From IMG/VR virus record IMGVR_UViG_3300028534_000001, positions 132,338 to 196,337 of that record: DNA of 64,000 nucleotides, one strand, 5' to 3'. The first letter of the stretch is position 1. Each line of letters begins with the position of its first letter. The notes below the pieces were generated by a model, which was given only the letters and a program-made list of their open reading frames with translations, did no database searches and was not told the DNA's origin. This stretch comes from a virus. Lineage: Duplodnaviria > Heunggongvirae > Uroviricota > Caudoviricetes. The translations under genes and the position numbers were made by a program. Shown here piece by piece: positions 15,551 to 63,080 of this stretch.

Positions 15551-15553
15551 ATT

Positions 15554-15715: not shown

Positions 15716-15744
15716 TTTTTCTCCTTTTTTATTTTCTTAATATA

Positions 15745-15773
15745 ATTATACCAAAATTTTATAAAAAAGTCAA
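15745..15773 (-). promoter_or_regulatory. sigma70-type early promoter
   Basis: The attata element is at 15745-15750 and agtcaa at 15768-15773, with a 17 nt spacer. Confidence 0.7.
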
Positions 15774-15779
15774 GAAAAT

Positions 15780-16265: not shown

Positions 16266-16303
16266 AAAAATCTCCTCAATTTTTAATTAAAAGAAAAAAT
16301 CTT

Positions 16304-17434: not shown

Positions 17435-17470
17435 TTTTATTCCTTATAATTATCATGGATATTTTATATA

Positions 17471-17499
17471 ATTATACTAAATTTTCAAATAAAAGTCAA
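17471..17499 (-). promoter_or_regulatory. sigma70-type early promoter
   Basis: The attata element is at 17471-17476 and agtcaa at 17494-17499, with a 17 nt spacer. Confidence 0.7.
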
Positions 17500-17507
17500 G
17501 AGAAATA

Positions 17508-18524
17508 TTAAATTTCTCTTTTTAAAATATCCCTTACTATTTCTTGAGCTGAAGGTCTTGCTAAATTTTGAATAATTTTTTTCTCGCCTTTATCTAATTC
17601 ATTAAATTTAGGATTATCTTTAATAAAATCTTCTAAAGCATCTTTGAAAAATAATCCTACAATTTTACCAAATTGTTTCCAATCTTTTTCAACTTCACCT
17701 TTTGAAAATAAATTATGAAGTCTATTAACTTCAAAGTATTTTGTAATTTCTTCTGCCCATTTTCTTTGTTCATCTGTAATTACAATTTGTTTTTTATTTT
17801 TAATTTTTTTAATTTTACCTTTTTCTTTAAATTTATCATTTTTATTTTTAAGAATAACTCTATCACCATTAGGCAATGTTTTATTAACTACTGGTTTAAT
17901 TACAACACCTTCACAAATATTTCCTTCTATAGGATTTAATCCATACAATTCAGGGATTTTTGTAGGAAATTCATTTGAAAATTGTAAACATTCTTCAAAT
18001 GTTCCTCTAAATAATTCTGGAACTACTTTAAATTCACAATTAAAAGCTAAATTTTTAACTTTATCCCATTCTAAAAATTCAGCATTTTCATCCTCATCAA
18101 CAGTCATAATATCAAAAACCATAAAATCAGTAAATGGAATATAATGAACTTCTTTTTGAATTTTTGTAAACCCTGGTTTAGTTTCACCATTAAAAATACC
18201 ACCAAAATGTTCTCCAAAAATTTGAACTTGTTTAATTTTTGGATTTTGTGAAATTAAAAAAGATGCAACTTTTTTAGCTGATTCTCTGTAATTTTCAAGC
18301 ATAATATCTGCATCATAAAATTTTTCTAATTCATTATCATTTAAAACAGATGTTCTTTTAGCAACTTTAACATTTTCTCCATCTGAAATGAAGCTAAAAT
18401 TTGTCCCGTGAATTTTTTCAGTAACTACCCATTCACAACAATCTATAATTCCACTTGTGATAATTCTTTTAATTTCTTTTTCTCTGTAAGAATTTTCAAT
18501 TGATGAATATTTTTTAAATTTCAT
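17508..18524 (-). CDS. rnlB: RNA ligase 2 (T4 Rnl2-like)
   Basis: MKFKKYSSIENSYREKEI...CEWVVTEKIHGTNFS is nearly identical to the T4 Rnl2 N-terminus and motif I EKIHGTN. At 338 aa it is close to T4 Rnl2 (334 aa). Confidence 0.8.
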   Translation of the reverse strand: MKFKKYSSIENSYREKEIKRIITSGIIDCCEWVVTEKIHGTNFSFISDGENVKVAKRTSVLNDNELEKFYDADIMLENYRESAKKVASFLISQNPKIKQVQIFGEHFGGIFNGETKPGFTKIQKEVHYIPFTDFMVFDIMTVDEDENAEFLEWDKVKNLAFNCEFKVVPELFRGTFEECLQFSNEFPTKIPELYGLNPIEGNICEGVVIKPVVNKTLPNGDRVILKNKNDKFKEKGKIKKIKNKKQIVITDEQRKWAEEITKYFEVNRLHNLFSKGEVEKDWKQFGKIVGLFFKDALEDFIKDNPKFNELDKGEKKIIQNLARPSAQEIVRDILKREI

Positions 18525-25192: not shown

Positions 25193-25221
25193 ATTATAAC
25201 AAAAAAGAAAGGAAAAGTCAA
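25193..25221 (-). promoter_or_regulatory. sigma70-type early promoter
   Basis: The attata element is at 25193-25198 and agtcaa at 25216-25221, with a 17 nt spacer. Confidence 0.7.
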
Positions 25222-26225
25222 GAACAAAATTCTTTTTTAAGCAATTTCATAAACATTTTTTCTAATTCATTCCAATTTGCTTTTTTAGGTAAATTTTCTT
25301 TTGCTACATCTTGAAGTTTTTCAAAATTTGCGAACTCAATTTCCATTTTTTCTTCTAATTCTTCAAGTGTAAATTCTAAATTTCTAATTTTTTTAAGTTC
25401 TTCAGCATTTTCTAATGGGAATTTTAACTGTTTTTTAACAATTAAATCTCTACCTTCTTCTAATAATCTAAATAAATGAAGAAAAAATTTAGCATCGTAT
25501 CCAAATTCTTTCCATTGTTCTGCTCTATGACTTGCACTAGTAATCTTTTCTTTCATCATTTTGTTTGCTTTTTTAATAAATAAATTTCTTGGAAATGTTA
25601 AATTACTTACAACAATTCCATCTTTTTTGAATAAATGTTTAAAAGGTGCAAATTCATTATAATGTTGAATTTCTCCAACTGTCATAATTCCATCGTGATT
25701 TTCAATAAATTTTTCAATTGTTTTTTGTAATGAAATTAAGTCTTTATAATTTACTGCTTTGTTTTTACCTTTTTTCATTTGACTTTTAGCATAACCCATA
25801 AATGAATGAAATACTCTTTGATTGATAAATAATTCACTATTATTTTGAAATTCTTCAAATTCTGGTGTATTGAATACAACTGCTTCAGGATTTGTATTGG
25901 CAAAAAGTAATTCTACAATGTTCGGATTTACATCTCCAGCTAATTTTAAAAATTTTTTTAATTCATAAACTTTACAATCTAATGCATCTTTTGTATTTTT
26001 ACCACTTTCATCTTTTACAACTTCTGATAAATCAACTTCTTCAACATTTTTAAAACCTAAGTGAAATTCAGGATTAGCTAAGAATACACCTAAAAAATCT
26101 ATGTCTGATTCAGGTGTATTTGTTCCATATAATTGACTACCACTTTTTGTCAAAAATAATAATCTCCCAAAAGGTTTAATTCTTTCTTTTACCATTTCTA
26201 AAATTTCTTGATTTGTTTTTAACAT
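25218..26225 (-). CDS. pol-beta superfamily nucleotidyltransferase
   Basis: LTKSGSQLYGTNTPESDIDFLGVF is the GS...D.D nucleotidyltransferase motif. 335 aa. Confidence 0.5.
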   Translation of the reverse strand: MLKTNQEILEMVKERIKPFGRLLFLTKSGSQLYGTNTPESDIDFLGVFLANPEFHLGFKNVEEVDLSEVVKDESGKNTKDALDCKVYELKKFLKLAGDVNPNIVELLFANTNPEAVVFNTPEFEEFQNNSELFINQRVFHSFMGYAKSQMKKGKNKAVNYKDLISLQKTIEKFIENHDGIMTVGEIQHYNEFAPFKHLFKKDGIVVSNLTFPRNLFIKKANKMMKEKITSASHRAEQWKEFGYDAKFFLHLFRLLEEGRDLIVKKQLKFPLENAEELKKIRNLEFTLEELEEKMEIEFANFEKLQDVAKENLPKKANWNELEKMFMKLLKKEFCS

Positions 26226-27535: not shown

Positions 27536-27757
27536 TTATTCTAAATTTGTAATTACGACTCCAAAATTACCTTTATCTGTGGTAACAACTTCACCTTCTC
27601 CAATTTTTACATTGTTAGCAAAAATCTCTACTTTTTCATTAACCTCTTTATCAAATTTAATTAAATCTTCAACTTTCAATGATTCAATTTCACTAAGTTT
27701 CATTTTAGTATCACATAATTTAACAAAAACATCAACTTTTACATCTTTTAAATTCAT
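27536..27757 (-). CDS. fliN: FliN/SpoA-domain flagellar motor switch-like protein
   Basis: The 73 aa protein DVKVDVFVKL..T.MKLSEIESLKVEDLIKFDK...VEIFANNVKIGEGEVVTTD..FGVVITNL fits the FliN C-terminal SpoA pattern. It overlaps the fliM-like gene by 4 nt. Confidence 0.55.
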   Translation of the reverse strand: MNLKDVKVDVFVKLCDTKMKLSEIESLKVEDLIKFDKEVNEKVEIFANNVKIGEGEVVTTDKGNFGVVITNLE

Positions 27758-28572
27758 TGTATCTCCTTTATATTATCATTTATTTTAATAGCAAAATCAT
27801 TTAATAATAAAGTATCTCCAACTTTAAAATTATCAATTTCTTTTACATTATATTTTTTAGTTTTACCTATTTCGATATCTAAATTAAAATCAAAATTTTT
27901 TTCTTTTTTATTGTTTTCTTTGAAAAAATCTTTAAATTCTTCATAAGGTAAACAAATATTTACCATACCTGAACTACTACCTACTATTATTTCAAATACA
28001 GCCATTATTGACGTTGAATGTTTTTTAGGTCTATAATAAGGTTGACTAAAATGAAAATCTATTATTTCTATATCATCACCAATTCTTTCAAAATCCTCTG
28101 AATATATAAAGGTATTTACTAATTTTCTCATTATTTCATTAGAAACTATTTTTTCAACATTATTGAATTGAATTTCACAAGATTCCATAAATGATTGTAT
28201 TAAAGATGGATTTATTTCAACAAAAAATGTTCTACCATCAAGTTTTAACTCATAAAAGAATGTTGGATGTGGTAAACACATAAGAAATTCATCAAATGTC
28301 AAAACATCTACACTATGCAATTGCATTTCAACTTCTTTTTTAACTAGACTTCTCAATTCAGGTAAAACATTATAAACAAATCTATCTAAAAGCCTTCTTA
28401 TATTTCTTAAATTTTGTTTAGAAACAATATTAGGCCTTTTAAAATCATAATATGTATATTTGTTTTGTTGATTTGAAACTTGTTCATCTTTAAATCTATT
28501 AGGTTGTATATCATCTTCTTCAACCATTTCTAAAAAAGCTTCAATTTCTTCTTGTGACATAATATCAGCCAT
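27754..28572 (-). CDS. fliM: FliM-like flagellar motor switch protein (lacks C-terminal FliN-like domain)
   Basis: MADIMSQEEIEAFL matches the FliM/FliY N-terminal LSQ-E/D-EIDALL. YDFKRPN..S...LRNIRRLLDRF matches FliM YDPNTQRRV..ERLQALEIINERF. GMVNICLPY matches GEFNICLPF and FKVGDTLLL matches LNPGDVLPI. Confidence 0.6.
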   Translation of the reverse strand: MADIMSQEEIEAFLEMVEEDDIQPNRFKDEQVSNQQNKYTYYDFKRPNIVSKQNLRNIRRLLDRFVYNVLPELRSLVKKEVEMQLHSVDVLTFDEFLMCLPHPTFFYELKLDGRTFFVEINPSLIQSFMESCEIQFNNVEKIVSNEIMRKLVNTFIYSEDFERIGDDIEIIDFHFSQPYYRPKKHSTSIMAVFEIIVGSSSGMVNICLPYEEFKDFFKENNKKEKNFDFNLDIEIGKTKKYNVKEIDNFKVGDTLLLNDFAIKINDNIKEIQ

Positions 28573-36052: not shown

Positions 36053-37420
36053 TTATTTTCTTTTTCTTTTAAATTCGTGAACATCATTAAACATAATTTG
36101 AACAATTTTATCACTTTGTTCAATTTGAATTATATGTTTTTCATCTTTAGATAATTCTAAAAATGTTTTCCCATCACACCAAATATGAAAAGGTTTTCTT
36201 GATTTTATTTTAATTGTTAAATTTTGAGGTTCTAAAACATAATGGATTTTTCTATTAGTTTTATCTCCTGTTATAACCCAATTATTTGAAGTTAAAGGTA
36301 AAATAACACCACCATTATTTTTATTTATACCAGTACTACCTTGAGCAGTTGATACAATTATACCACTACCTTTGAAATCTTCAATTTGTTCATCTTTATC
36401 ATCAACACTAAAATCAATCCAAGACGACATATCACCACCTATACATATTTCATTAAAAGCTAAATGCCAATTATTTTCATATTTTACTTTTAATAAATGT
36501 AGTGAAATAATTTCAGGATTTGATATATTTTCTTCTTTATTCATAAGAAAATTTAAAGTACCTTTTCCAACACCATAAAAAGGTTTGTTTTTAAAAGAAA
36601 ATTCTCTTATAGCAAGAAGCATTGTTCCATCACCACCATATACTTTAATAAAATTTGTATATTCTACTATTTTATAATATTTATCAAATGTTTTTAATTC
36701 CCAAATAATTTCACCCCAAAATTTCCATTCATTTAATAATTTGAATGTTTTTTCAAAAAGGTATTTTTTACCTAATTCTTTATTTTTTCTAATTTCTCTT
36801 GCGTGAATAACATTTCCATTATTAGTAAATTCTTCAATATTTTTAATGTGATATCCTTCTAATCCAAAAATAGTAGGATAATTACCGTGATATTTTTTAT
36901 TTTTATATTCAAAATCAATCTTATCGACATCTTTTAAATGTGAATATAAAATAATATTTTTTTTAGATGATATGTCTAAAATTTGTTTTTCTATATTTTC
37001 AAACCATTTATCCCAAGATTCATAGTCATTAGCTCCTATTATAATAGCATTTGGGTATATTTTTTCAATAATTTCTTTTCTTTGTTCAAAAGATAAAGGA
37101 TTTTTATCATCAAGTATTTTATTTATACTACCTATTACAATTATAGGTATTAAACCATCTTCAATAATTTTATTAACAATACTAGCATGTCCTTTGTGGA
37201 AAGGTTGAAATCTTCCTAGAAATAATCCATATTTTTGGTTATAATTTTCATCACATATAAAACTTTCAATAAAAAATTGACCTCCCATAGGAGTATCAGA
37301 ACCTACTTTAAATCCACATTTAGAACATTTATAAATAGTTACTCCATTTCCTTTATATTCTTCTTCAATTATTTCTCTATAATTTTTTGAATATATTCCA
37401 CATTTAGGACATTTATACAT
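36053..37420 (-). CDS. bifunctional NMN adenylyltransferase (NadM-type) / NAD kinase fusion with N-terminal zinc ribbon
   Basis: The N-terminus is CPKCG...CSKCG. GLFLGRFQPFHKGHASIV...IIVIGS matches the archaeal NadM motif GRFQPFH.GH...IG.GS. The C-terminal domain carries the NAD kinase motifs GGDGTMLLA, GVGKGTLNFL, NEICIGG and GIIVSTAQGSTGINKNNGGVILP. Confidence 0.7.
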   Translation of the reverse strand: MYKCPKCGIYSKNYREIIEEEYKGNGVTIYKCSKCGFKVGSDTPMGGQFFIESFICDENYNQKYGLFLGRFQPFHKGHASIVNKIIEDGLIPIIVIGSINKILDDKNPLSFEQRKEIIEKIYPNAIIIGANDYESWDKWFENIEKQILDISSKKNIILYSHLKDVDKIDFEYKNKKYHGNYPTIFGLEGYHIKNIEEFTNNGNVIHAREIRKNKELGKKYLFEKTFKLLNEWKFWGEIIWELKTFDKYYKIVEYTNFIKVYGGDGTMLLAIREFSFKNKPFYGVGKGTLNFLMNKEENISNPEIISLHLLKVKYENNWHLAFNEICIGGDMSSWIDFSVDDKDEQIEDFKGSGIIVSTAQGSTGINKNNGGVILPLTSNNWVITGDKTNRKIHYVLEPQNLTIKIKSRKPFHIWCDGKTFLELSKDEKHIIQIEQSDKIVQIMFNDVHEFKRKRK

Positions 37421-40047: not shown

Positions 40048-40590
40048 TTATAAGTTAAATTCTTTAAAGTGGTATGCCAAATAAATGTAAAACATTTTAT
40101 CTAAAACCATTTGAATTGTTTCATCTAAAGTGTTATAAAATTGTATATCATTTTTCATAAATTCTTTTATATATCTTACTTTTTCGGCATTTTTAGGAAT
40201 ACCTACAATTAACTTTTTATAATTTTTTGAATACCAATAACCTAATTCAAATTGTGTACTCATTCCTATCATTTTATTCATTTCTCTTGGTATCCAAAAC
40301 ATAATAAGTTGAGATTTATTCATAGCATCTTTTTCATTTTCAATTTGATTAACTAATTTCTTATCATCTAAAATAATTTGTCTTTTAGGTGTTATTAAAT
40401 TAACATCAAAATTAAATCTTTTATAAATAGGATTTTCTAACATTTTTTCAAAAATTTTATAAGCATTTTCATGCCAATCATTTTCTTTTCCTCTGACAAT
40501 AGGACCTGCTAAAAATATTGAATTTTTATATTCAATATCTTTATCAATCACATTATAAATTTTCATTGATTCTCCTTTCAATAATAACAA
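40048..40590 (-). CDS. nucleoside 2-deoxyribosyltransferase-like protein (PF05014-like)
   Basis: SIFLAGPIVRGKENDW...LITP...QLIMFWIP...STQFELGYW resembles the deoxyribosyltransferase flavodoxin-like core (S.YLAGP...W......E.G.A). Confidence 0.35.
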   Translation of the reverse strand: MLLLKGESMKIYNVIDKDIEYKNSIFLAGPIVRGKENDWHENAYKIFEKMLENPIYKRFNFDVNLITPKRQIILDDKKLVNQIENEKDAMNKSQLIMFWIPREMNKMIGMSTQFELGYWYSKNYKKLIVGIPKNAEKVRYIKEFMKNDIQFYNTLDETIQMVLDKMFYIYLAYHFKEFNL

Positions 40591-42638: not shown

Positions 42639-43160
42639 TTATTCTTCCATAACTTTCATAAGTTTAATATCAACTAAATCATTAGAATAGTAATAATTTT
42701 TCATTAAATGGTATTCAACTATTGCATCCTCTTTGTTATCAAACACAATAGTTTCAACATCAACTTTTTCAATAAATTCAATGTCCATACCTATATCTCC
42801 ATCGTAATAACTTGATTTGCTTGCTTTTAAAATTTGAATGACCCATTTTTCTTTATATTTAGAAATAATTTCTTTTTTAATTCTTTTAAAGAAGTCTTTA
42901 TAATTTTCTATTTCAAATGAAATATCATAATAGTCAGTTTCAACATTTTTAAAAACATCTTTTAATAATTTTATTAAATATTTTTTATCTTCGTTTAATT
43001 CTTTATTCGTTACATTATAGTGATCAAAACCATATGTTCCAAATTCACACTGCACAATCAATTTATCATCTTTAAACGAATATGATATATATCTTAGACA
43101 AAAATAATTTGATTTGAATTTTTCAAGTTCATATTTTAAGAGTTTTTTTATATCTAACAT
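42639..43160 (-). CDS. hypothetical protein
   Basis: 173 aa ORF. Confidence 0.4.
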   Translation of the reverse strand: MLDIKKLLKYELEKFKSNYFCLRYISYSFKDDKLIVQCEFGTYGFDHYNVTNKELNEDKKYLIKLLKDVFKNVETDYYDISFEIENYKDFFKRIKKEIISKYKEKWVIQILKASKSSYYDGDIGMDIEFIEKVDVETIVFDNKEDAIVEYHLMKNYYYSNDLVDIKLMKVMEE

Positions 43161-43464: not shown

Positions 43465-43493
43465 ATTATACAATAAAAATAAAGAAAAGTCAA
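43465..43493 (-). promoter_or_regulatory. sigma70-type early promoter
   Basis: The attata element is at 43465-43470 and agtcaa at 43488-43493, with a 17 nt spacer. Confidence 0.7.
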
Positions 43494-43515: not shown

Positions 43516-44901
43516 TTATTTATCTATATTTTCTCTAATTTTATCAAGTGTTATTTCGTTTTTTATTTCTCCATTCTCAAAAACAACTTTTAGCATATCA
43601 ATATCGTTAGGTTGTTTTTCACTTTCTTTAATACAGATAATTTTATCATTTCTTTTAACAGTAATTACTTTACCTTTTTTAGATTGTTTTTTACTATCTG
43701 TTATAGGATTTTTAAACACTTCAACTCCAACTTTTTTACTATCTATATTTCTTTCAATATAAGAACATTTCATAGCAAAACTAAATGTATCTCTATCAAT
43801 TCCAGTTTGCCCTAATTGTGTTCCACTACCAAAAACAAAATTTTCAGCTGCATATCCTCTTTCTGTAAATATTTTAAGGATGTTATCAATTGTTTCAGGA
43901 TTAACACCATCACCCCATAGCACGCTCGTCCAACTACTTGCTTTCTTTCCATTTATTTCAATATCAAAAACATTGTTTTTTTCCATAATTTCAAACATTT
44001 TAGAAATGACTTCAATTGGGTTTCCACTATCTGGACGAATAACAAATGTTTGATTATTTTTAATAATTGATTTTCTAATATTACTTTCAGGTTTTGTAAC
44101 TTCATTTGTAAAATTATAAATATCATAACTATCTGCCACAAATGATAGGATAGCACCTTCTTTATCATTTTCTCTAACCATTCTTTCAATAAATGCTATT
44201 TCTTTTTCAGTTGAACCTTCAGCGTTAGCAGTAGTTGAACTATGTTCCGACGCAAATACGCTAAAAGCGCTTATTTCAGAACTATAAAAATCTCTTGCGA
44301 ATTTAAGAGAATTAAAATTATCTGTCCCATAAAATACACAATTATGAGCGAAACCACTAATTGCTGCTGATTCTACACTTGTCATACTTCTATCCCCAAA
44401 GTTATGATAAGCAAATCTTGCCCATTCTTCACTTCCATATTTTTTAAGCATTTCAAAAACCTGTTTGCTTTTAGTTGTAATAACTGTAGGATACCATATT
44501 TTCATAAGTATTGTCTCCACCCATCCTACTATCCACGGAACATTTTCATCTGTGCTTTCTACTATTACAAGTGGAACACCAGGTTTAACTTTTACACCTT
44601 CTTCAATTGCTTTAATTTTAATAGGAAGTCTTCCATCAAGTTCTTTAGCAATATACATCCAACCATCATAATTAAAATCTATTCCGTGAAGTTTAGCAAA
44701 TTTTGCTGCTTCTTCTACCATTTCTGTAGTAATTCTTTGACTAAGATACCTTTTTAGGTAATATTGAAGACCACTCATAATAATTGTATCAGGACCTTTT
44801 CTTGCCTCGATATAATCATACATATAACACATATCTTTTGGGTATTGTTTATAATGACCATATTTATAAGAATCACTCATCATTACTATATTTTCAACCA
44901 T
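43516..44901 (-). CDS. nadV: nicotinamide phosphoribosyltransferase (NadV/NAMPT)
   Basis: SDSYKYGHYKQYP matches NAMPT TDSYKVTHYKQYP. ADSYDIYN, VIRPDSGNP, FGSG, KCSY and VFKNP..D..K.SKKG all match NAMPT signature blocks. The length is 461 aa. Confidence 0.85.
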   Translation of the reverse strand: MVENIVMMSDSYKYGHYKQYPKDMCYMYDYIEARKGPDTIIMSGLQYYLKRYLSQRITTEMVEEAAKFAKLHGIDFNYDGWMYIAKELDGRLPIKIKAIEEGVKVKPGVPLVIVESTDENVPWIVGWVETILMKIWYPTVITTKSKQVFEMLKKYGSEEWARFAYHNFGDRSMTSVESAAISGFAHNCVFYGTDNFNSLKFARDFYSSEISAFSVFASEHSSTTANAEGSTEKEIAFIERMVRENDKEGAILSFVADSYDIYNFTNEVTKPESNIRKSIIKNNQTFVIRPDSGNPIEVISKMFEIMEKNNVFDIEINGKKASSWTSVLWGDGVNPETIDNILKIFTERGYAAENFVFGSGTQLGQTGIDRDTFSFAMKCSYIERNIDSKKVGVEVFKNPITDSKKQSKKGKVITVKRNDKIICIKESEKQPNDIDMLKVVFENGEIKNEITLDKIRENIDK

Positions 44902-44944
44902 TTTAAACTCCTTTTTTTAATTATAATATAATTTTTAATAAAAA

Positions 44945-45525: not shown

Positions 45526-45885
45526 TTAATATCTTTCTCTTATTAAATTATATGAAAATGAAACATTATCAATATTAGATAATATTTTAATCATATCTTT
45601 AATATTTGATTTTTCAACTAATAAACCTATATTATCAAAAATAAAATAATTAGGTTTATTTGTCTTATTATTATCATTCACTTTAGACATCATTTCTAAT
45701 AAATCTATAATAGATTTAAACTTATCATTTAAAACATTTGTAGATGAATCTAAACCTTTTTCATATAAATTAAAATCACTTTCTTCACAATTAAAGAAAA
45801 AAACATTATGTGTTCTAATTATATCATTTGCTATACTAATCAACAATTTTGTTTTACATTCATGAGAACGACCACCTATTACCAT
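45526..45885 (-). CDS. hypothetical protein
   Basis: 119 aa ORF. Confidence 0.35.
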   Translation of the reverse strand: MVIGGRSHECKTKLLISIANDIIRTHNVFFFNCEESDFNLYEKGLDSSTNVLNDKFKSIIDLLEMMSKVNDNNKTNKPNYFIFDNIGLLVEKSNIKDMIKILSNIDNVSFSYNLIRERY

Positions 45886-46071: not shown

Positions 46072-46100
46072 ATTATACCAAAAAAGAAAAGAAAAATCAA
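46072..46100 (-). promoter_or_regulatory. sigma70-type early promoter, TTGATT -35 variant
   Basis: The attata element is at 46072-46077 and aatcaa at 46095-46100, with a 17 nt spacer. Confidence 0.5.
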
Positions 46101-48761: not shown

Positions 48762-49304
48762 TTATTTATTTAATTGATATGCCCATTTTGTAAAAATAAA
48801 AATTGATTTCCAATCACTATTTTCAATAAGTTCATCTACATTTAACCAAATAATTTTCTCATCTTCATCTGCACCTACAAAGTCAACATTAGTTACATCA
48901 ACAACATAACCTTTTAACATTTGATTAGATTGAGTTGAAACCATTGTTTTACCTATATATGTAATATTTCTATTATCAACTTTATAACCAGCTTCTTCTT
49001 TAACTTCTTCAATGACAATTTTTTCAGGTTCAATATTTTTATCTAAACTTCCACCAAAAGCAGTAGCTAATCTTTTAATTCCTCTTTCATATAAAGGTGG
49101 TTTAATTTCTTGAATAAGACCAATTTTATCTTTGTTATTATCAATTAAAATAAAGGCAACACTATCAATACCTGCTCTTTCTGAATATAAGTAATAACCA
49201 TCTGCTTTTTTAATTTTCATAAAAGGTTCATTATTAAGGGGATTTTTGCTATCACTTTGCCAAATTATTTCAGGTTTTTCACTTTCCATTTTTTCTATAA
49301 TCAT
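48762..49304 (-). CDS. Nudix-like hydrolase (ADP-ribose pyrophosphatase-like)
   Basis: FGGSLDKNIEPEKIVIEEVKEEAGY is a degenerate Nudix box (GG...E.E....EE..EE.G). Confidence 0.45.
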   Translation of the reverse strand: MIIEKMESEKPEIIWQSDSKNPLNNEPFMKIKKADGYYLYSERAGIDSVAFILIDNNKDKIGLIQEIKPPLYERGIKRLATAFGGSLDKNIEPEKIVIEEVKEEAGYKVDNRNITYIGKTMVSTQSNQMLKGYVVDVTNVDFVGADEDEKIIWLNVDELIENSDWKSIFIFTKWAYQLNK

Positions 49305-51967: not shown

Positions 51968-53455
51968 TTAAGCATTTAGATATATGTATGTATCGGGATA
52001 AATCATATCACCAACATCACTTGTAATTTTAAATTGAAAACTTCTTCCTTTTTTGAAAACAACATCATAATTATAAGTTATTCTATCAAAATAAGTCAAA
52101 TTATTAGTAATCATATTATCTATTGGATATTCTTCTTTAATATTAAATGCTGATTGATTTTCATATTGATCATCCCAATTATTATCAATACTATCATCAT
52201 CTGGTGCTAAACTACAATATAATTTATTATTAGAAATTCTATATATTATGGAAGGAGCAGATTCTAATTTATTTCCTGAAATATCAATTTTATAAATAGT
52301 TTTTTCATCTTTTCTATTTATATAATCATAATATTCTTCAGTATTATAAACACCAATATTATATTCAAATTGAGCAAATTTATTACCAATTGTTTTACTA
52401 AAAAATTCTAATAAAGTATATCTATAATCTTCTTTTCTCCAATCACTATTTTCATTTGTCTTTTGAATAGCTTTACTATTATGTCCATCTAAAACTTTTT
52501 TATTATTAACAAAAACTATAAATCTTCCATCACTTGTTAATTGAACTATAATTGAATGATATTGATCTTTTGTAAAAATAACATCTTCAGTTGTAACATC
52601 ATATGCATTTTCATCATCATTAGCTGGATATTTATAATTTTCAGTATAACTATCAAAATATCCAAATCTAATTCTTAATTTATTATCTGTTGTTTGGAAA
52701 ATATCACAAAAATAAGGTATATATTTTTTTTTACCACTATAATAATAACTTGATAATGATCCAGTAGCAAATCTATATAATAAATCGTCTTCTTCTAAAT
52801 TATCTGAAGCAGGTTTAAAAAATATAGAAGTAAATCTATCTTTAGAATAAACCATTTTATTAAAAATATTTTGGTCAAATAAATTTAATTGTACTTTTTC
52901 TACATTTCCATTTTCATCTGCTGCTGTTTTTAATACTAAACCATTTTCATCATTTTCAAAAGGACTATCTGCTTCTTGAACATATGTTCCTTTTGTTACT
53001 AATTGTTCTGTTGGTATTTTATATAAAATATCATCAAAATTTATATTAGCATAATTTTTTTGTCCATCTTTTAACATAGGTTTTGCAAAAGAATAAACAA
53101 CTAAAGGTTCAACTTCATCTTCTTTTTCAAAAGAAGAATATTCTCTAAATAAACCTTTTATTTCTGTTACTTCACCTGCAGTTATAAATTTTCCATTTGG
53201 GTTTTCATTATTAACAATGTAAAATTGTTTATCTTTTTCAATTCTACTTTGTTCTAAAAGTTGTTTAGTTAAATATATTTCATCTTTTGTTATGTTTGGA
53301 TAACCTGGAATTTCAATAATAGGTAATCTTTGTAAACCCATATTAAAATTTCTAACTTGGTAGCTAGACCAATCTGGTTGATCATCATATTGGTGTTTAA
53401 TTTCACTTTCCCAAATACTACCATCTTTTATTGAATATATTTTATCATAAGCCAT
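51968..53455 (-). CDS. hypothetical protein (possible virion/late protein)
   Basis: The 495 aa ORF has no early-promoter consensus upstream. It is the first of three large consecutive genes. Confidence 0.4.
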   Translation of the reverse strand: MAYDKIYSIKDGSIWESEIKHQYDDQPDWSSYQVRNFNMGLQRLPIIEIPGYPNITKDEIYLTKQLLEQSRIEKDKQFYIVNNENPNGKFITAGEVTEIKGLFREYSSFEKEDEVEPLVVYSFAKPMLKDGQKNYANINFDDILYKIPTEQLVTKGTYVQEADSPFENDENGLVLKTAADENGNVEKVQLNLFDQNIFNKMVYSKDRFTSIFFKPASDNLEEDDLLYRFATGSLSSYYYSGKKKYIPYFCDIFQTTDNKLRIRFGYFDSYTENYKYPANDDENAYDVTTEDVIFTKDQYHSIIVQLTSDGRFIVFVNNKKVLDGHNSKAIQKTNENSDWRKEDYRYTLLEFFSKTIGNKFAQFEYNIGVYNTEEYYDYINRKDEKTIYKIDISGNKLESAPSIIYRISNNKLYCSLAPDDDSIDNNWDDQYENQSAFNIKEEYPIDNMITNNLTYFDRITYNYDVVFKKGRSFQFKITSDVGDMIYPDTYIYLNA

Positions 53456-53568
53456 TTCCTGTCCTTTTATTTTTATTTATTCAAACAATACATTAACAAT
53501 ATAAAAAATCTTTAATAATATTATTAAATTCAATTTTAAACACAATTTTATTATAATTTGATTTTAAA

Positions 53569-54855
53569 TCATTCTATTACTTTGTCTTGATAATATTGAG
53601 CTTGTCCAAAAATATTTTTCTTAATATAATAATTATCAAATTCTGTTCTAATTATAATTCTATCAGGACTTGATTTTAAATTAGAAATTTGTTTTGACAT
53701 ATATTTAATATTATTTTCAAAACTATCTTTTGATGTATAAAAATTATTAAATTCAGTTTCAATTATAATTTTATCTTTAAAAGAATTTTTTGTAATTAAA
53801 TTTTTAATTCTAAATGATATATTATTTTCAAAGGCATCTTTTAATATATAAAAATCATTGAATTCTGTTCTAATTACAACTTTATCTTTACTATCAACAA
53901 TATCAATGGATTTATTCATAAATGTAATATTATTTATATAATCTGTTTTTAATAAATAATAATCGTCAAATTCTGTTCTAATTACAACTTTATCTTTACT
54001 ATCAACAATATCAATAGATTTATTCATAAATGTAATATTATTTACAAATTCTGTTTTTAATAAATAATAATCATCAAATTCTGTTCTAATTATTGTTCTA
54101 TCTTTTGAATTAACTATTATATCATCTTTTCTTAAATATTTTATATTTTTTATAAAAGAATCACTATATTTAAAAATATTATCAAATTCTGTTCTAATTA
54201 TTATATTATCTCTAATATTAGATAAATAAATATTTTTATCTATAAATCCAATGTCGTAAATAAAACCTTCTGATATTTTAAATTTAGATAAATCAGGTAA
54301 AACAAAATTATATTCTGGTTGACTTTCTGATGTTTCTTTAGGAATTTCAATAGAAAAATTTGTACCTACCAAAGGTATAGGAAATGTTATTTTATAATCA
54401 TCAAAATTATCTCCATTATAATTTCCGTAATATTTTATTACGACTTCTGCTTCAAAAGGTTCTTTGAAAGAATTTCTCCAATTTCCTTTTAAAGGGAATT
54501 TTATTAAAATTTCTTCTTCTTTATTGTTATATGCAAATGCAATAAATGTTGGTTCCCCATTTGGGGCATCTTTCCATAATTTTGACCAATCTTCTTCATA
54601 TAAATTTTGGAAATCATTTAAATTATTACCATTTTCTAATATTTTTTCTACATCTTCTTCAGGTAATCTATCAAGTCTTGAATCTTTGATACCTTCATAT
54701 ACTAATTTCCATTCTTTATCATCAAAGTCATAATAATACCATTTTAATAAATCTGTAGTTACTAATACTTTAGCGTTGATTGATACCTTACTTCTTAATT
54801 GAAAAATTTTATCAAATGGATACAAATCCACCAATCTTTTTGGTGTAAAAATCAT
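53569..54855 (-). CDS. repeat-containing protein (about 36 aa IIRTEFD..Y..K..F.NNI.FM.K repeats)
   Basis: At least six tandem peptide repeats are present. Two adjacent DNA copies at 53861..54076 are nearly identical. Confidence 0.45.
   Translation of the reverse strand: MIFTPKRLVDLYPFDKIFQLRSKVSINAKVLVTTDLLKWYYYDFDDKEWKLVYEGIKDSRLDRLPEEDVEKILENGNNLNDFQNLYEEDWSKLWKDAPNGEPTFIAFAYNNKEEEILIKFPLKGNWRNSFKEPFEAEVVIKYYGNYNGDNFDDYKITFPIPLVGTNFSIEIPKETSESQPEYNFVLPDLSKFKISEGFIYDIGFIDKNIYLSNIRDNIIIRTEFDNIFKYSDSFIKNIKYLRKDDIIVNSKDRTIIRTEFDDYYLLKTEFVNNITFMNKSIDIVDSKDKVVIRTEFDDYYLLKTDYINNITFMNKSIDIVDSKDKVVIRTEFNDFYILKDAFENNISFRIKNLITKNSFKDKIIIETEFNNFYTSKDSFENNIKYMSKQISNLKSSPDRIIIRTEFDNYYIKKNIFGQAQYYQDKVIE
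53861..54076. repeat. intragenic tandem direct repeat, 2 x about 108 bp, near-identical
   Basis: aattctgttctaattacaactttatctttactatcaacaatatcaat[g/a]gatttattcataaatgtaatattattta... occurs twice back to back. More diverged copies extend across about 53600-54250. Confidence 0.6.
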
Positions 54856-54893
54856 ATCATATCCTTTTATCTAATAAAGGAAAAAATCCCTTA

Positions 54894-56330
54894 TTAGAAT
54901 TGTTTATCCATATTTTCTACAGTAACTCTAATTTTAGAAGCACTTGTTAGATCAATATGAATAGTATTAGCATCAATAACACTTATTGTAGCACTGTCAT
55001 TGTAATATTTTTTCTCATCATCATCATAAACCCATAACATAACATCTATAAATTCACTTCCAAGATTGTGTTTAATATCAAAACTTGTAGCTTCATCACT
55101 TGATTCATATGTATATCTAATTGAATTTATTTCAGTTCTAATTGTAGTGTTATTTGTATCACATTTATCACTTACAGATTTAATAGCTGCGTCTAATTTA
55201 TTATCAGCATCTGCTAAACTTGAAGCTCCAGAAATGTAATTAGCATTACTATTTACTACATAATTTCCATCAGAATCTAAACCAGCTCCTGCTTCTACTC
55301 TATCAACTTCTTTTTGAAGAGCATCTGCATCACCACCAGTTGCAACTTTAACTAAAATATAATTACCATTAGAATCTTTTTCACCTGTTGGGATTTTTAC
55401 AGTATCATCATTTTCATCCCAAATTAGTAATGGCATAATACCTTCTTTACCTCTATTTACTTCCATACCTGCATTTTCTGTAGGGTCTGCATCATTAGGT
55501 ACATCAGAATTTAAAGTAAAGATATTATCTGATATTAACATTTGTTTAGTATTTACTTGTGTTACTTCACCTTTAATAGTTAAATCACCATTAACATATA
55601 GATTTTTTTGGAATGTAACATTACTTGCAACTGTTTGATCATCTGTAGTAACTTTATCTAAAAATCTACCATTAGCATCAGCTTCAAAATCATCAATTTG
55701 TTTTTGAAGAGCAGCATCAGCATCTTTTCTATCTGAAACTTCTTGTACTAAACTTTTATCTAATAATTGTGTTGCTTCATTTATTGATTTAGCATCTTTA
55801 ATATATGCTCCATTATCATAAGGAACATAATTTCCATCTTTATCTAATCCAGCTCCAGATTGAGTATTATCTAATTCATCTTGAACTTTAGAAATATCAT
55901 CTTCTGCTTTAGCTAAATTGTCGTCAATAACTTTTCTATCAGCATCAATACCATCTACTAAAGATTTTAATGTATCTTCTAAATTTCCTGAAGGAATACT
56001 AAATTTATCATTAGCTCCATCGTGACCCATAAATCCAACTAAATGAGAACCTTCACCTGGTTTTACAGAAGCTAATTTTTCAATAAATCCATAAAATTCT
56101 TCTGCTGTATTAAATTTAAAAATTTTAGGAGTTTCTGTAGTATTTCCATCACTATCTTTTGTTTCTTCTACAAAAACACCTTTAAAACATTTATCATTTG
56201 AATTATACCAAATTCTACCTGGTACTAATTCTGTAGGGTCTTTTTCTAAATTTTCAAAAACTGCATTTCTAAAATCAGCATTAGGTGCTAATTCAATACA
56301 GTGAAATTTTTGAACTCTACTCATAATCAT
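54894..56330 (-). CDS. tail-fiber-like protein (speculative)
   Basis: The 478 aa protein has an internal duplicated motif, SGAGLDKDGNYVPYDNGAYI and EAGAGLDSDGNYVVNSNANYI. There is no early promoter upstream. Confidence 0.35.
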   Translation of the reverse strand: MIMSRVQKFHCIELAPNADFRNAVFENLEKDPTELVPGRIWYNSNDKCFKGVFVEETKDSDGNTTETPKIFKFNTAEEFYGFIEKLASVKPGEGSHLVGFMGHDGANDKFSIPSGNLEDTLKSLVDGIDADRKVIDDNLAKAEDDISKVQDELDNTQSGAGLDKDGNYVPYDNGAYIKDAKSINEATQLLDKSLVQEVSDRKDADAALQKQIDDFEADANGRFLDKVTTDDQTVASNVTFQKNLYVNGDLTIKGEVTQVNTKQMLISDNIFTLNSDVPNDADPTENAGMEVNRGKEGIMPLLIWDENDDTVKIPTGEKDSNGNYILVKVATGGDADALQKEVDRVEAGAGLDSDGNYVVNSNANYISGASSLADADNKLDAAIKSVSDKCDTNNTTIRTEINSIRYTYESSDEATSFDIKHNLGSEFIDVMLWVYDDDEKKYYNDSATISVIDANTIHIDLTSASKIRVTVENMDKQF

Positions 56331-58958: not shown

Positions 58959-59780
58959 TTAAATTTTTAATAATTTTTCAAATTCTGTTCTAACTCTTTC
59001 AGGATTAGCTTTTTTCATCATATAATCAAAATTTCTTCTAGCTGCTTCTAAAGTTCCTTTAATAGGTTTAAATCCTTTTTTAATAAATTTATATACTCTA
59101 ATAACTCTTAATGCATCTTCGTTTATTCTATCTTCAGGTTTTCCTATAAATGAAAATTCTTTATTTAAACAATGTCTAATACCTCTTTTAGAAGAGTCAA
59201 TAATAATATTTGTTTTTAAATCAAAATATAAAGCATTGATAGTAAAATCTCTTCTTTGCCAATCATCTTCTAAATTACCAAAATTGACTTCATCTGCTCC
59301 CAATCCTTTTGATTTATTATAAACATCTTTTCTAAATGTTGCTATTTCAAATGATTCTTTTGCTTTAATCATAATAACACCAAAATGTTCTCCAACTAAA
59401 TCTAATTTAATATCTTCATCTTTTAAAATATCAACAATTTCATTAGGTTTTAAATTTGTAACTAGATCAATATCTTTTGGTTTTAAACCTGCTAAAATAT
59501 CCCTAACAAACCCTCCTACAATATAAACATTACCTTTTTCTAAAAGTTTTTCAATCCATTTATTTTCTTTTTTAAATTGATTAGAATTATCTTTTAAATT
59601 TAAATATCTTTCAAATAATAAATCAAATTCTTTTAAATTTGTTTCTTCTAAAATTTTTAGTGGATTTTTATCTAATTTTTTTAAAAATTCTTTTTCAAAA
59701 ATCTTAGAATTATCATTAGTAAATTCAATACCATTTTTAAAAGCTAATTCTCTAAATTTTTCTAAAATATAATTTTTCAT
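58959..59780 (-). CDS. compact tRNA nucleotidyltransferase (CCA-adding / polyA polymerase head domain)
   Basis: YIVGGFVRDILAGLKPKDIDLVT matches GGAVRD.LLG....D.D. FEIATFRKDVY matches EVTTFR.E. QRRDFTINAL matches RRDFT.NA. The protein is only 273 aa, with an extra N-terminal segment of about 80 aa. Confidence 0.7.
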   Translation of the reverse strand: MKNYILEKFRELAFKNGIEFTNDNSKIFEKEFLKKLDKNPLKILEETNLKEFDLLFERYLNLKDNSNQFKKENKWIEKLLEKGNVYIVGGFVRDILAGLKPKDIDLVTNLKPNEIVDILKDEDIKLDLVGEHFGVIMIKAKESFEIATFRKDVYNKSKGLGADEVNFGNLEDDWQRRDFTINALYFDLKTNIIIDSSKRGIRHCLNKEFSFIGKPEDRINEDALRVIRVYKFIKKGFKPIKGTLEAARRNFDYMMKKANPERVRTEFEKLLKI

Positions 59781-60248: not shown

Positions 60249-61913
60249 TTAAGAAATATAATTTAAAAATTTCTTATTTATTTTATCAATTGATATATCA
60301 TAATCAAAATTTTCTAGAGTGTTTTTAATTGATTTTATATCATTTGATTTCACAAATAATGCATCGTGAATTCTTACACTTACAAGATTTAAAAGTGATG
60401 ATAATTCTTTCATCACTCTTTCCTCTCTTTTAGTATATTCCACAAATACAATATTGTCTTCATTAACACTCTTATCTTTTAATTCCTTATTATAAAACTT
60501 CAATTTATTTTCTACATAAAAATTTTTAAATTTAACATAAGTATCCTCTATAGCTTTCCCATAATTTTTTATAAATTCAATTGTTTCATTGTCTAATCTA
60601 TTAGTAAAATAATAAGGAACAAATTCTGCTGGCATTCCATTCATAATACTAATCCAATAAGTTTTTAATGTCTTCCTAGATTTTTTAAACATTTTTCTTT
60701 TGTTTTCATTTTGAATTTGAATTTTAGAAGCAATGTCTTGAGAAATTTCATCTAATTTATTATAAGCATTTTCAAGCACATTACTTCTAAAGAACTTTTT
60801 TTCATTATCCTTTAATAATTGAAAATTAGAAAATTTTAAATCAATTTCATATGTGAATCCCATAAAAGAAAGAACAATCGTTCTTAGTTCTTTATGTAAT
60901 TGAGTAAATAAATTATATTCTCTACCTTGGTTTTGATACTCAGTACTTAGAATACAGTTATCCTCTATTCCTTTTATAACTTTTTCAACTTGCATAATAT
61001 GACTGTTTAATTTATTTATCTTACCTTTAATAGCATCTTTTTGAAAATCTTCTAAATCTTTAGTTAAAGCAATTTCATATTTTCTAATTTTATTTTCTAA
61101 AGTTTTTTTATAACCATTTAAAACATCTTCTAATTTTAAATTTTTAGAATTTTTAATTACTTCACTAAATTCTTCTTTAGAAATTTCATCTTTTTTAAAC
61201 ATATTTTTAGCTACTTTTGTTAAATCTTCTCCTGATAAATAAGGTTTTTCAATTTCATATTTTCTTAAATAACAACTATTTATATTTTGAGTAAAATCTT
61301 TTTTATCTAAATCAATAACTTTATAATTTCTTTTTAATAATAAAGACATTCTAATAGAAGTAGCATTATAATTATATTCTTGATTTTTATATAAAAATTC
61401 TCTAGCATCTTCATATTTTTTATTAGCTATTAAATTAAAATATTCTATAGATTTATTATAATTCATAAATGTAAATTTTATAAAAGGTAATAAATTATAT
61501 GCATTAGCAATTCTTTCTTCTTCATCTTTAGTAGGATATCCTTTTATTTTAGATAAATAAAATTCTAAAATTCTAGCAACTTTGTTAGTTGAAAATTGTT
61601 TTTGGTTCTCTAAAATAGTCCCTAAAAACATACCATTGTAAATATAGTGCTCTTCTGCAAAGTAAATTTTTAAAGCTAACATAATAAGTTTTTTGTGTGA
61701 TTTTTTAATAAGAGAGTTGAATTTATTTTCTTCAATATGATGTTCTAATTCTTTGTTTATTATAGGAACAGGAACAATTAAATTAGAAAATACTTCGTCA
61801 GTAGAATTAAATTCACCCCAAAGTTTAACGTCATTTAAAGCTTTAGCGTGAATATTGTTTTTTCTTTTCCAATTTTTTCTAGCAATTTTTTTATATAATT
61901 TATTTTTATCCAT
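60249..61913 (-). CDS. hypothetical protein (554 aa), flanked by inverted promoter-like repeats
   Basis: It is a long ORF. RIHDALFV lies near the C-terminus. No family was recognised. Confidence 0.45.
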   Translation of the reverse strand: MDKNKLYKKIARKNWKRKNNIHAKALNDVKLWGEFNSTDEVFSNLIVPVPIINKELEHHIEENKFNSLIKKSHKKLIMLALKIYFAEEHYIYNGMFLGTILENQKQFSTNKVARILEFYLSKIKGYPTKDEEERIANAYNLLPFIKFTFMNYNKSIEYFNLIANKKYEDAREFLYKNQEYNYNATSIRMSLLLKRNYKVIDLDKKDFTQNINSCYLRKYEIEKPYLSGEDLTKVAKNMFKKDEISKEEFSEVIKNSKNLKLEDVLNGYKKTLENKIRKYEIALTKDLEDFQKDAIKGKINKLNSHIMQVEKVIKGIEDNCILSTEYQNQGREYNLFTQLHKELRTIVLSFMGFTYEIDLKFSNFQLLKDNEKKFFRSNVLENAYNKLDEISQDIASKIQIQNENKRKMFKKSRKTLKTYWISIMNGMPAEFVPYYFTNRLDNETIEFIKNYGKAIEDTYVKFKNFYVENKLKFYNKELKDKSVNEDNIVFVEYTKREERVMKELSSLLNLVSVRIHDALFVKSNDIKSIKNTLENFDYDISIDKINKKFLNYIS

Positions 61914-62128: not shown

Positions 62129-62290
62129 ATATTCTTTTCTTTTTTCTATATATAATTATACAATTTTAAAATTGAATTAGAAATAATATATTCTTTTCTT
62201 CTTTCTATATATAATTATACAATTTTAAAATTGAATTAGAAATAATATATTCTTTTCTTCTTTCTATATATAATTATACAATTTTAAATT
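62129..62290 (-). repeat. tandem direct repeat, about 2.7 x 58 bp, each unit with a -10-like TATAAT but no TTGACT
   Basis: The unit atattcttttcttctttctatatataattatacaattttaaaattgaattagaaataat occurs at about 62129, 62187 and 62246. The third copy is truncated and overlaps the stop of 62274..63080. Confidence 0.6.
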
Positions 62291-63080
62291 CTTCTTCATT
62301 GATATACTTATCAAATAATTCTGGTTTATAATCTTCAAGTAATTCACTCCAAGTTCTAATTCTACTTCTTTCTACTGAACCATTATTTGTTTCTTTCATA
62401 TAAAGTTCTTTTTTACAAAATGTCCCATACTTAAACCATTTAGGACTATCTCCAAAACTTTTACCTGTTTTTTCATAAGCTAAAGTAATTTGTTCATTTG
62501 CTGTTTTACCTAGGAGTTCTTTATGACTGCAATATGCTTGTGCAAACCCTGTTTTAGCATTTCTAAAAACATCGTGATTTCTCCATTTGAAATTTTCAAA
62601 AACTTCTTCAAATGTTTCAACACCATAAACTCTAGCGTCAAAAAATGCTTCAAATCTTTTACTTACAATTGTATCAAGATATTTTAAATCATTTTCATTA
62701 TTTTTATAATATTCAATTTCATATTCCCAAAAAGCATTAAATTCTTTTGTAGCAAATGCTGATAATAGACTTGCCATCTTTTGAGTTCTACCAGCAAAAG
62801 GGTGTGTCTGTTTAGCATTACATTTAAGAAAATAAAGTGTAATTTCATCAGAACCTGTATATCCTAAATTAGCATTGAATTTATTTGCTAATGCTACCAT
62901 TGTATTAACCATAACTTTACCCAAAATTTCATCATAAGGTTTTTTCAAACCTTTTGTAAATTTACTAAATTTATGTCCATCAAGTCTAACAATTAAGTGA
63001 TAATCATTTGGAATTTGAGTTTCAAATTTTTTTTCTTGTTTTTTAAAAATATTATTTTTTGTGATAATTTTTTCTTTCAA
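62274..63080 (-). CDS. Thg1-like protein (tRNA-His guanylyltransferase / tRNA 5'-end repair family)
   Basis: YHLIVRLDGHKFSKFTKG..KPYDE matches Thg1 VVVRLDGRNFHRF....KPND. LGYTGSDEITLYF matches AYGQSDEYSFVF, which holds the catalytic acidic residues. Confidence 0.7.
   Translation of the reverse strand: MKEKIITKNNIFKKQEKKFETQIPNDYHLIVRLDGHKFSKFTKGLKKPYDEILGKVMVNTMVALANKFNANLGYTGSDEITLYFLKCNAKQTHPFAGRTQKMASLLSAFATKEFNAFWEYEIEYYKNNENDLKYLDTIVSKRFEAFFDARVYGVETFEEVFENFKWRNHDVFRNAKTGFAQAYCSHKELLGKTANEQITLAYEKTGKSFGDSPKWFKYGTFCKKELYMKETNNGSVERSRIRTWSELLEDYKPELFDKYINEEEFKIV

Follow-up and report, generated by a model that had tools for sequence, protein, structure and literature searches.

Amino-acid constraint and a probable allele exchange among related phages as sources of the high GC content of a jumbo phage nadV gene within a NARP2-like set of NAD genes

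The stretch of DNA considered here, 64,000 nt long (positions 132,338 to 196,337 of IMG/VR record IMGVR_UViG_3300028534_000001, and called the window below), comes from a T4-like jumbo phage of ~207-222 kb and only ~20% GC, known from a metagenome. Its nadV gene (43516-44901, minus strand), encoding a 461-aa nicotinamide phosphoribosyltransferase (Nampt) with an ATG start, is the GC-richest of the 107 open reading frames (ORFs) in the window. A preliminary description of the gene had proposed that this composition could reflect either recent horizontal acquisition or strong amino-acid constraint. Both appear to have contributed: constraint on the protein accounts for about three quarters of the excess, and acquisition, from a related phage, is a plausible source of the synonymous remainder. 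We consider it likely that NadV belongs to a NARP2-type NAD+ salvage module and owes its GC content mainly to constraint, with allele exchange supplying the rest.

The GC content of nadV is 29.2% (0.292), compared to 0.199 for the window as a whole (19.9%). The other ORFs have a mean of 0.201 and a standard deviation (sd) of 0.035, placing NadV at +2.6 sd; for the maximum of 107 genes, this is not extreme in itself. Of 62,615 sliding windows of the length of the gene (1386 bp), 0.06% reach its GC content, the highest of all (0.2937) being the one that starts at 43526. At least 27% GC is reached in only one other region, at ~54.2-56.5 kb. The windowed GC and codon usage calculations suggested earlier thus do set the gene apart from the average. 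A C/G-rich stretch singled out in the same description, CCACCCATCCTACTATCCACGG, has one exact match in the window (44517-44538), quoted there on the plus strand, with the minus strand coding. Its reverse complement encodes the conserved PWIVGWV of NadV (P122-V128), in which W123 and G126 are nearly invariant among 26 homologs.

Most of the excess can be traced to the protein. GC contents at the first, second, and third codon positions (GC1/GC2/GC3) are 0.416/0.327/0.134 in NadV, against a background of 0.320/0.211/0.072. When the NadV protein is recoded with the background codons of the window its GC content is 26.8%, which falls between the 20.1% of background coding sequence and the 29.3% observed, so that ~73% of the GC excess comes from amino-acid composition and ~27% is synonymous. 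NadV is enriched 1.4- to 2.2-fold in W, A, M, G, S, V, T, R, and P, and depleted in K, N, and especially L. In alignment columns in which the residue of the window protein is shared by 80% or more of 117 homologs, the GC content of the first two codon positions is 0.468, compared to 0.28-0.34 in the other columns and 0.266 in the background.

A set of related AT-rich contigs was available for comparison (here L003, L005, L007, L008, L009, and L096), with 16-21 kb of each compared; L003 (JGI 3300026484 Ga0256837_1000054, 101.9 kb), with ~25% GC and ~21 kb compared, is the closest relative. GC1 (0.42-0.45) and GC2 (0.32-0.34) of NadV are nearly constant across relatives of 23-29% genome GC. In five related contigs (19.6-29% GC) NadV ranks first to fourth in total GC, by way of GC1 and GC2 and without a GC3 excess. 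NadV is a slow-evolving enzyme whose W, A, M, G, S, V, T, R, and P codons carry G or C at positions 1 and 2, and whose composition has resisted the AT-driven drift toward K, N, L, and I that other phage proteins show. A conserved protein that requires GC-rich codons makes the gene GC-richer than its neighbors, which is the main part of the effect.

The second GC-richest gene in the window (54894-56330, minus strand; 28.7% GC) served as a control, and illustrates GC-richness by composition alone: its synonymous third-position GC content (GC3s) is at background (17 vs. 20.9 expected). Its 478-aa product is rich in D, A, G, S, T, and V, and its homologs are mosaics in which collagen, head-fibre, and coiled-coil segments occur. 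On this evidence the product is probably of the fibre or receptor-binding type; a PDB sequence search gave no match. It is one of three large genes in a row (51968-56330, minus strand; 495, 428, and 478 aa) without Pfam or PHROG matches.

The statistically unusual feature of NadV is its synonymous component. Leaving aside Met and Trp, it has 438 codons, of which 39 have G or C in the third position where 18.9 would be expected (z 4.8), with both classes contributing: 22 C-ending codons (11.4 expected) and 17 G-ending (7.5 expected). GC3s is 0.089 in NadV, 0.043 as expected in the window, and 0.159 in the L003 copy. Among genes of at least 150 aa, only NadV and a gene at 42639-43160 have codons that fit the usage of the relatives better than that of the window, and by the codon-usage log-likelihood favoring the relatives, NadV is first or second of 46 genes. 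Nei-Gojobori dS values are uninformative here (~93% of third positions are A or T, and pS saturates near 0.4-0.57 according to amino-acid content), and within-amino-acid permutation tests were used in their place. No tRNA genes, a possible explanation of the codon choice, were found in the 64-kb window. Translational selection for NNC codons, as a sole cause, was rejected: G-ending codons are equally enriched, and the NadVs of the relatives have no GC3 excess.

Comparison with L003 suggests where the synonymous component may have come from. NadV is 85% identical to its L003 counterpart, and a 180-aa Nudix hydrolase discussed below is 80% identical, while ten other shared genes range from 29 to 68%. 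Expressed as -ln(identity), NadV is at 0.16 from L003 and 0.51-0.61 from L007, L008, L009, and L096; the Nudix protein is at 0.22 from L003 and 0.69-0.78 from the others. For these two, L003 is 3-4 times nearer than the other relatives; for four others the ratio is ~1. These are nicotinamide mononucleotide adenylyltransferase (NMNAT; 0.81 for L003 vs. 0.77-0.88 for the others), NAD kinase (NADK; 0.62 vs. 0.67), a nucleoside 2-deoxyribosyltransferase-like (NDT-like) protein (1.0 vs. 0.92-1.07), and dCMP deaminase (0.77 vs. 0.81). NadV thus combines atypical synonymous codon usage with an incongruent depth of divergence (the latter over ~21 kb of the relative), the two signs by which an exchange was to be recognized.

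Where the window and L003 NadVs have identical residues, the same codon is used at 72.0%, against an expectation of 58.5±1.8%. This excess is smaller in the Nudix gene (~3-4 sd), and the remaining orthologs of the pair are at expectation. The two nadV copies also have 14 G/C-ending sites in common, where 6.2 would be expected (0 of 2000 permutations). The codon sharing is specific to this pair, being absent for L005, L007, L008, and L096, and the pair specificity of both synonymous effects argues for ancestry rather than site-specific selection. The L003 NadV is at the codon equilibrium of its own genome (z 0.66), which suggests that the window lineage was the recipient, with either the L003 lineage or a third phage of comparable GC content as the donor. 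Similarity at the DNA level (85.1% over 1385 bp) is confined to the ORF, ending at 43518.

The synonymous residue is therefore best explained, with moderate support, by a comparatively recent exchange of NadV alleles among related phages. In the sequence of events we envisage, most of the genome would already have diverged by the time the window lineage exchanged its NadV allele with related phages of ~25% GC, the Nudix allele would have been exchanged separately with the same kind of relative, and the G/C-ending codons of the exchanged NadV would have been only partly ameliorated. The NadV exchange is not very recent, as the two copies differ at 15% of their amino acids. A single co-transfer of NadV and Nudix with equal amelioration is unsupported, the Nudix GC3s being at background; this implies either separate events or another cause for part of the NadV GC3.

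Several observations weigh against an exchange. The Nudix gene, for which one is also proposed, has no GC3 excess (8 vs. 7.1 expected). Two other genes, at 42639-43160 and 60249-61913, match the GC3s excess of NadV (z 4.9 and 4.8) with neither a donor nor a relative identified, and some gene-specific codon effect thus exists in this genome. L003 is also the most similar relative overall in other genes (several at 61-68%). GC3 sites are also shared, to a marginal degree, with L009, a distant relative (6 vs. 2.5 expected), which hints at slight site-specific selection. The distances used are plain identities. In the tree described below, which carries no support values, the position of NadV is discordant in depth only, and concordant in topology. 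Finally, the comparison draws on just those 16-21 kb per relative. The two genes matching NadV in GC3s are both unannotated: 42639-43160 (minus strand, 173 aa) is one gene away from NadV, and 60249-61913 (minus strand) encodes 554 aa.

An alternative explanation is constraint only. NadV would then have been inherited vertically, with selection on the protein setting codon positions 1 and 2 and selection on codon choice, translation accuracy, or mRNA properties acting at position 3, and slow evolution would be enough to account for how close it is to the L003 copy. The high GC rank of NadV in all relatives examined favors this explanation, as do the slightly higher GC3s in its most conserved columns (0.114 vs. 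~0.08), the prominence of AAC and AGC among the excess codons, the existence of two unrelated genes with an equal GC3s excess, the lack of any in a Nudix gene as close to L003, and the marginal L009 sharing. However, the NadVs of the relatives are at their own GC3 backgrounds (z -2.1 to +1.4), which indicates that there is no general codon selection on NadV, and G-ending codons are enriched as much as C-ending ones. It would also leave unexplained why synonymous sites are unsaturated solely in the L003 pair, and the 3-4-fold gap in depth between NadV and Nudix on one hand and NMNAT, NADK, the NDT-like protein, and dCMP deaminase on the other. We regard it as a rather unlikely alternative to constraint combined with allele exchange.

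A different kind of transfer, fresh capture of a bacterial or archaeal NadV still retaining the composition of its host, might be suggested by the GC content and codon usage of the gene, which are atypical for the window, and by the status of NadV as a classic auxiliary metabolic gene that originated in cells. Its relatives speak against this. The nearest NadVs among 5.8 billion proteins are 85% (P0002), 64%, 64%, and 58% identical, followed by a continuum down to ~44%. The closest cellular NadV, in a search of 185,579 species (one genome each), is only 47% identical and is from a metagenome-assembled genome of the Guaymas Basin, on a binned fragment of 3.2 kb that may itself be viral; the remaining cellular sequences are at 38% or below. 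NadVs of GenBank phages are at most 39% identical, so that no isolated phage qualifies as a donor. Among them is that of Vibrio phage KVP40, which reportedly has a NadV-NatV NAD+ salvage pathway (Lee et al., 2017); its NadV has 35% identity, aligned over 99% of the length.

In the neighbor-joining tree, made along with the KVP40 comparison as the preliminary description had proposed, the window NadV and P0002 are sisters deep in a clade that, with the exception of one short fragment of a metagenome-assembled genome, is known only from metagenomic contigs; the clade is separate from cellular NadVs and from those of KVP40, Mx1, RsoM2USA, and S-B23. All relative contigs inspected are phage-like, with the same NAD module (L005 being unclear), and a GC content of 29% is still extremely AT-rich. 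Recent capture from a cell is accordingly very improbable. An acquisition that is "recent" does not hold for a cellular or host source, nor, given the amino-acid differences from the L003 copy, in the sense of great recency.

The neighborhoods of NadV in L003, L007, L008, L009, and L096 are phage-like, with NMNAT nearby; several add a Nudix gene, an NDT-like gene, or a NAD kinase, and L007 also has NADAR and L096 SIR2. The closest relatives include the phage markers rIIB, Acb1, and Apyc1. In L007, NadV is flanked by a KVP40-like NMNAT-Nudix fusion and the NADAR gene (8867-9961 and 11498-11998), and in L009 the anti-defence genes Apyc1 and Acb1 are found near NadV (5534-6784). L005 (ENA ERZ27262631 k141_135172; 19.6% GC) carries a NadV 64% identical to that of the window. 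Its other genes, on both strands, include MmeI-type restriction-modification, a response regulator, a T2SSE ATPase, SSB, and a ribonucleotide reductase small subunit, and its nature is ambiguous: it could be from a phage, from some other mobile element, or from a cell with very AT-rich DNA.

The composition could in principle also come from a chimeric contig, joining a GC-richer piece to an AT-rich phage. This is a metagenome assembly, and composition does shift at gene borders. Yet the same NadV and flanking genes are found in independent contigs (an ENA contig of 207 kb, ERZ27262685 k141_589182, and a 4.9-kb Logan contig from SRR8439170), the identical protein is on a separate JGI record of 222.65 kb, and a conserved phage promoter cassette and a phage-typical ribosome-binding site directly adjoin the NadV ORF. 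An assembly artefact seems scarcely credible.

The identification of NadV itself, advanced with high confidence in the preliminary description, holds up well. The protein contains the quoted motifs DSYKYGHYKQYP, DSYDIYN, and RPDSGNP. It has both domains of the NAMPT architecture above curated cut-offs: NAMPT_N (PF18127; E 1.5e-26, 92.9 bits, cut-off 25) and the type II phosphoribosyltransferase domain NAPRTase (PF04095; E 2.2e-29, 103.3 bits, cut-off 20.8). It also exceeds the equivalog cut-off of 405 for the canonical Nampt family NF006629 in NCBIfam (431.6 bits), and aligns over its full length to solved NAMPT structures (bacterial 7YQO, E 1.7e-83; human, ~3e-75).

Human residues Y18, F193, R196, D219, H247, R311, D313, R392, and K400 correspond to Y12, F168, R171, D194, H220, R289, D291, R370, and K378 of the window protein, all conserved, and most catalytic or substrate-contacting residues are invariant across 26 homologs. 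In human numbering, we take Asp219 (D194 here) to determine nicotinamide specificity and His247 (H220) to be the phospho-His. NadV is thus functional-looking, and would be expected to make nicotinamide mononucleotide (NMN) from nicotinamide and phosphoribosyl pyrophosphate (PRPP). A Shine-Dalgarno sequence (AAGGAG) at 44908-44913 on the minus strand, read from the upstream intergenic sequence, is 6 nt from the start codon.

There are a few differences from cellular enzymes. In the phosphate-binding loop (aa 357-372), the near-universal form is FGSGGDLMQN, while the window NadV subclade has FGSGT(Q/R/Y)xGQTG. The window protein itself has FGSGTQ instead of FGSGGD, with T361 in the place of human G384. 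The variant is common to the window protein (P0001), P0002, P0004, and P0005, and is thus a conserved, clade-specific change at the active site. In addition, human NAMPT D192 is replaced by N167.

A second gene of the pathway is at 36053-37420 (minus strand), 6.1 kb from NadV and in agreement with the distance of about 6 kb given for it earlier. It encodes a 455-aa fusion of a Zn ribbon, a NadM-type NMNAT, and a NAD kinase, assigned by Pfam, PDB searches, motifs, and AlphaFold2 and Foldseek. The N-terminus has two CxxC pairs. The NMNAT domain (aa 62-167) has a GRFQPFHKGH motif, a Pfam CTP_transf_like match, and similarity to NadM-Nudix PDB structures (E 3e-10). NAD-kinase motifs follow: GGDGT (262-266), FNE (322-324), and the Gly-rich TAQGSTGINKNNGG (358-371), also listed as STAQGSTGINKNNGG. 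In all of ten fusion homologs GGDGT, F322-N323, T358, Q360, G361-S362-T363-G364, N366, K367, and G371 are invariant; other motif positions vary, and E324 is D in two.

By profile searches the C-terminal half is a divergent member of the NAD kinases. It scores 25.6 bits with NAD_kinase_C (cut-off 23.7), 18.8 with NAD_kinase (under its cut-off of 25.5), and 70 with the best NCBIfam NAD kinase model (cut-off 211). PDB NAD kinases match at E ~1e-5. In an AlphaFold2 model of the fusion (pLDDT 85, pTM 0.75), the top Foldseek matches to the C-terminal half are all NAD kinases (E ~1e-13, probability 1.00, target TM ~0.6 over ~220 columns). The fusion is rare, with nine clusters of full-length homologs among the 5.8 billion proteins, and no GenBank phage has a protein covering at least 80% of it. 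L096 has a standalone NAD kinase within its NadV/NMNAT neighborhood.

The Nudix hydrolase (48762-49304, minus strand; 180 aa, Pfam NUDIX) resembles the ADP-ribose pyrophosphatase YffH/AdpP, with an NCBIfam TIGR00052 match (E 2e-9) below the cut-off and PDB matches to ADP-ribose pyrophosphatases at E ~4e-3. Its orthologs are directly 5' of NadV in L008 and L009, and it likely corresponds, as a gene of its own, to the Nudix half of KVP40 NatV. The NDT-like gene (40048-40566, minus strand; 172 aa, Pfam PF15891 E 1.8e-13) accompanies NadV and NMNAT in L003, L009, and L096. Farther away, a 236-aa SIR2-family protein (12193-12903, minus strand; Pfam SIR2 E 8.7e-26) resembles NAD+-dependent deacylases, with CobB-like NCBIfam matches below their cut-offs. 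It may be a consumer of NAD+ in the same phage as the salvage genes; L096 has a SIR2 fragment near its NadV cluster.

NARP2 is defined as Nampt plus Nmnat in phages without Adps (Osterman et al., 2024, bioRxiv 10.1101/2024.02.11.579819), and the gene set in the window is called NARP2-like on that basis, as was suggested before this analysis. Homologs of both enzymes are found in one phage genome, and no Pfam match to an Adps or PRPP-synthetase-like gene was found in ~70 kb (the equivalent of 2-72 kb of the window) of the ~207-222-kb genome. The extent of that search, with ~140-150 kb of the contig outside its scope, weighs against the assignment. As far as the sequence goes, NadV, the NMNAT-NAD kinase fusion, and the Nudix protein fit a NARP2-type module with a NAD-kinase extension. 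NadV would convert nicotinamide and PRPP to NMN, and the fusion would convert NMN to NAD+ and then probably to NADP+, while an AdpP-like Nudix hydrolase could recycle ADP-ribose to ribose-5-phosphate and AMP. Such a module may maintain the supply of NAD(P) while infection proceeds, or act against defences that deplete NAD+.

The KVP40 pathway and other NARP2 systems resemble the window set in combining a phage Nampt with a NadM-type Nmnat in a large T4-like phage, with a Nudix activity encoded; in the ~70 kb covered of the window contig, Adps was not detected. The window NadV differs in belonging to a separate clade from its KVP40 counterpart. Its Nmnat partner is fused to a NAD kinase and an N-terminal Zn ribbon, with the Nudix a separate gene, and the genes are spread over ~13 kb (~37 kb with SIR2) rather than arranged as an operon.

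NAD+ synthesis and use have already been described in jumbo phages, under the name of NAD-jumbo phages (Microbiome 2024, PMC11662467), which like the window phage have NAMPT and nadM-type synthesis genes together with a NAD+-using SIR2. That survey contains no occurrence of NAD kinase or NADP, whereas the window phage has a putative NAD kinase; the window phage is also far more AT-rich, and its NadV clade is unrepresented among isolated phages (best 39%). Compared to cellular NAMPTs (human 2GVG, bacterial 7YQO), the window protein shares the two-domain architecture, full-length alignment (E 1e-75 to 1e-83), the autophosphorylated His, and the Asp for nicotinamide specificity, and differs in the loop, which is FGSGG(D/G)L in the cellular enzymes.

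A repeated promoter cassette may drive the expression of these genes. Nearly all genes in the window are on the minus strand, and the cassette, with a consensus cTTGACTTTT-N14-TATAATTATAAT...AAGGAG, has 29 matches in a motif scan of the window, where 2.9 are expected. Twenty-five of these are on the coding strand (24 exact matches and the one at 46072-46100); checked against the ORF map, all are intergenic. Their -35 hexamers start, on the minus strand, at 1575, 2543, 3036, 3794, 8083, 14086, 15773, 17499, 18586, 24320, 25221, 27108, 31519, 35170, 35414, 39480, 42626, 43493, 46100, 47551, 49666, 50914, 58949, 60125, and 63431. One (TTGACTTTT-N14-TATAAT, 43465-43493, minus strand) comes directly after the NadV stop codon and forms the downstream boundary of the NadV module. 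The nearest on the 5' side (TTGATTTTT-N14-TATAAT, 46072-46100, minus strand) has one mismatch.

NadV is probably the last gene of a four-gene early unit (45885-43516) starting from the latter cassette, and the NAD module is probably expressed early from such conserved sigma-70-like promoters. The first gene of the putative unit (45526-45885, minus strand; 119 aa) has a sub-threshold match to a DnaB-like helicase C-terminal domain (E 2.9e-5). A generic promoter scan around NadV was at chance level (24 vs. 27.8±4.3), and no terminator-like sites were found between 42.5 and 45.6 kb.

Sequences like the cassette-bearing gaps match many intergenic sites in L003, L004, and L009. They recall the PeSL (promoter-early stem-loop) cassettes of T4-type phages, by means of which genes are shuffled as modules (PMC2839356, PMC4122927): like these, they have a conserved sigma-70-like early promoter and a ribosome-binding or Shine-Dalgarno site, repeated in ~25 intergenic gaps on the coding strand. 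They differ in that no conserved stem-loop or terminator part was detected, the 50 nt 5' of the cassettes yielding only weak, non-conserved AT stems, and membership in the PeSL group is not claimed. They are a plausible recombination substrate, and a part in the NadV exchange is conjecture; no cassette lies at the upstream border of the NadV similarity block.

Phage hallmarks in the window, by PHROG matches, are RNA ligases 1 and 2, PNK, and a helicase. The window also has dCMP deaminase, dNMP kinase, Cpn10, Thg1, and a CCA-adding-like enzyme, with Apyc1 on the same contig shortly past the window end (~69.5-71.1 kb equivalent; L013 821-2376). A second cytidylyltransferase-like gene (184 aa) is also found on this contig, just past the end of the window. 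Genes for RNA repair or modification (a PNK-like AAA_33 protein, RNA ligases 1 and 2, an RlaP nucleotidyltransferase, a CCA-adding/PolyA_pol-like protein, and Thg1) are on the minus strand at 14453-18524, 25218-26225, 58959-59780, and 62215-63021. An oddity for a phage is a pair of adjacent genes (27754-28572 and 27536-27757, minus strand) with precomputed Pfam matches to FliM and FliMN_C, domains of the flagellar switch.

The GC bump at NadV is then what a slow-evolving enzyme would be expected to leave in a genome of ~20% GC, and not a foreign island derived from a host. The trace of allele exchange is modest, and exchange among related phages would be normal phage mosaicism. The gene also serves as a worked example of how an anomaly in composition can be partitioned between amino-acid and synonymous components before horizontal transfer is invoked. 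Judging from the deep metagenomic clade to which this NadV belongs, many uncultured jumbo phages with AT-rich genomes have NAD+ reconstitution of the NARP2 type.

Novelty, if there is any, is limited to the NAD-kinase extension, the NadV module being otherwise of a known kind; in the literature searched, no phage NAD kinase and no NADP+-forming phage salvage module are described. It is possible, and we suggest it only tentatively, that the AT-rich T4-like jumbo phage clade runs an extended NARP2 leading from NMN to NAD+ and on to NADP+, by way of the fusion or of a kinase like that of L096. Such phages would be able to supply themselves with NADP(H), which could serve, for instance, in the reduction of ribonucleotides, and part of the rebuilt pool might escape cleavage by defence NADases that are specific for NAD+. 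Provided that the kinase is active, NADP+ as well as NAD+ would come within the reach of phage counter-defence or metabolic takeover.

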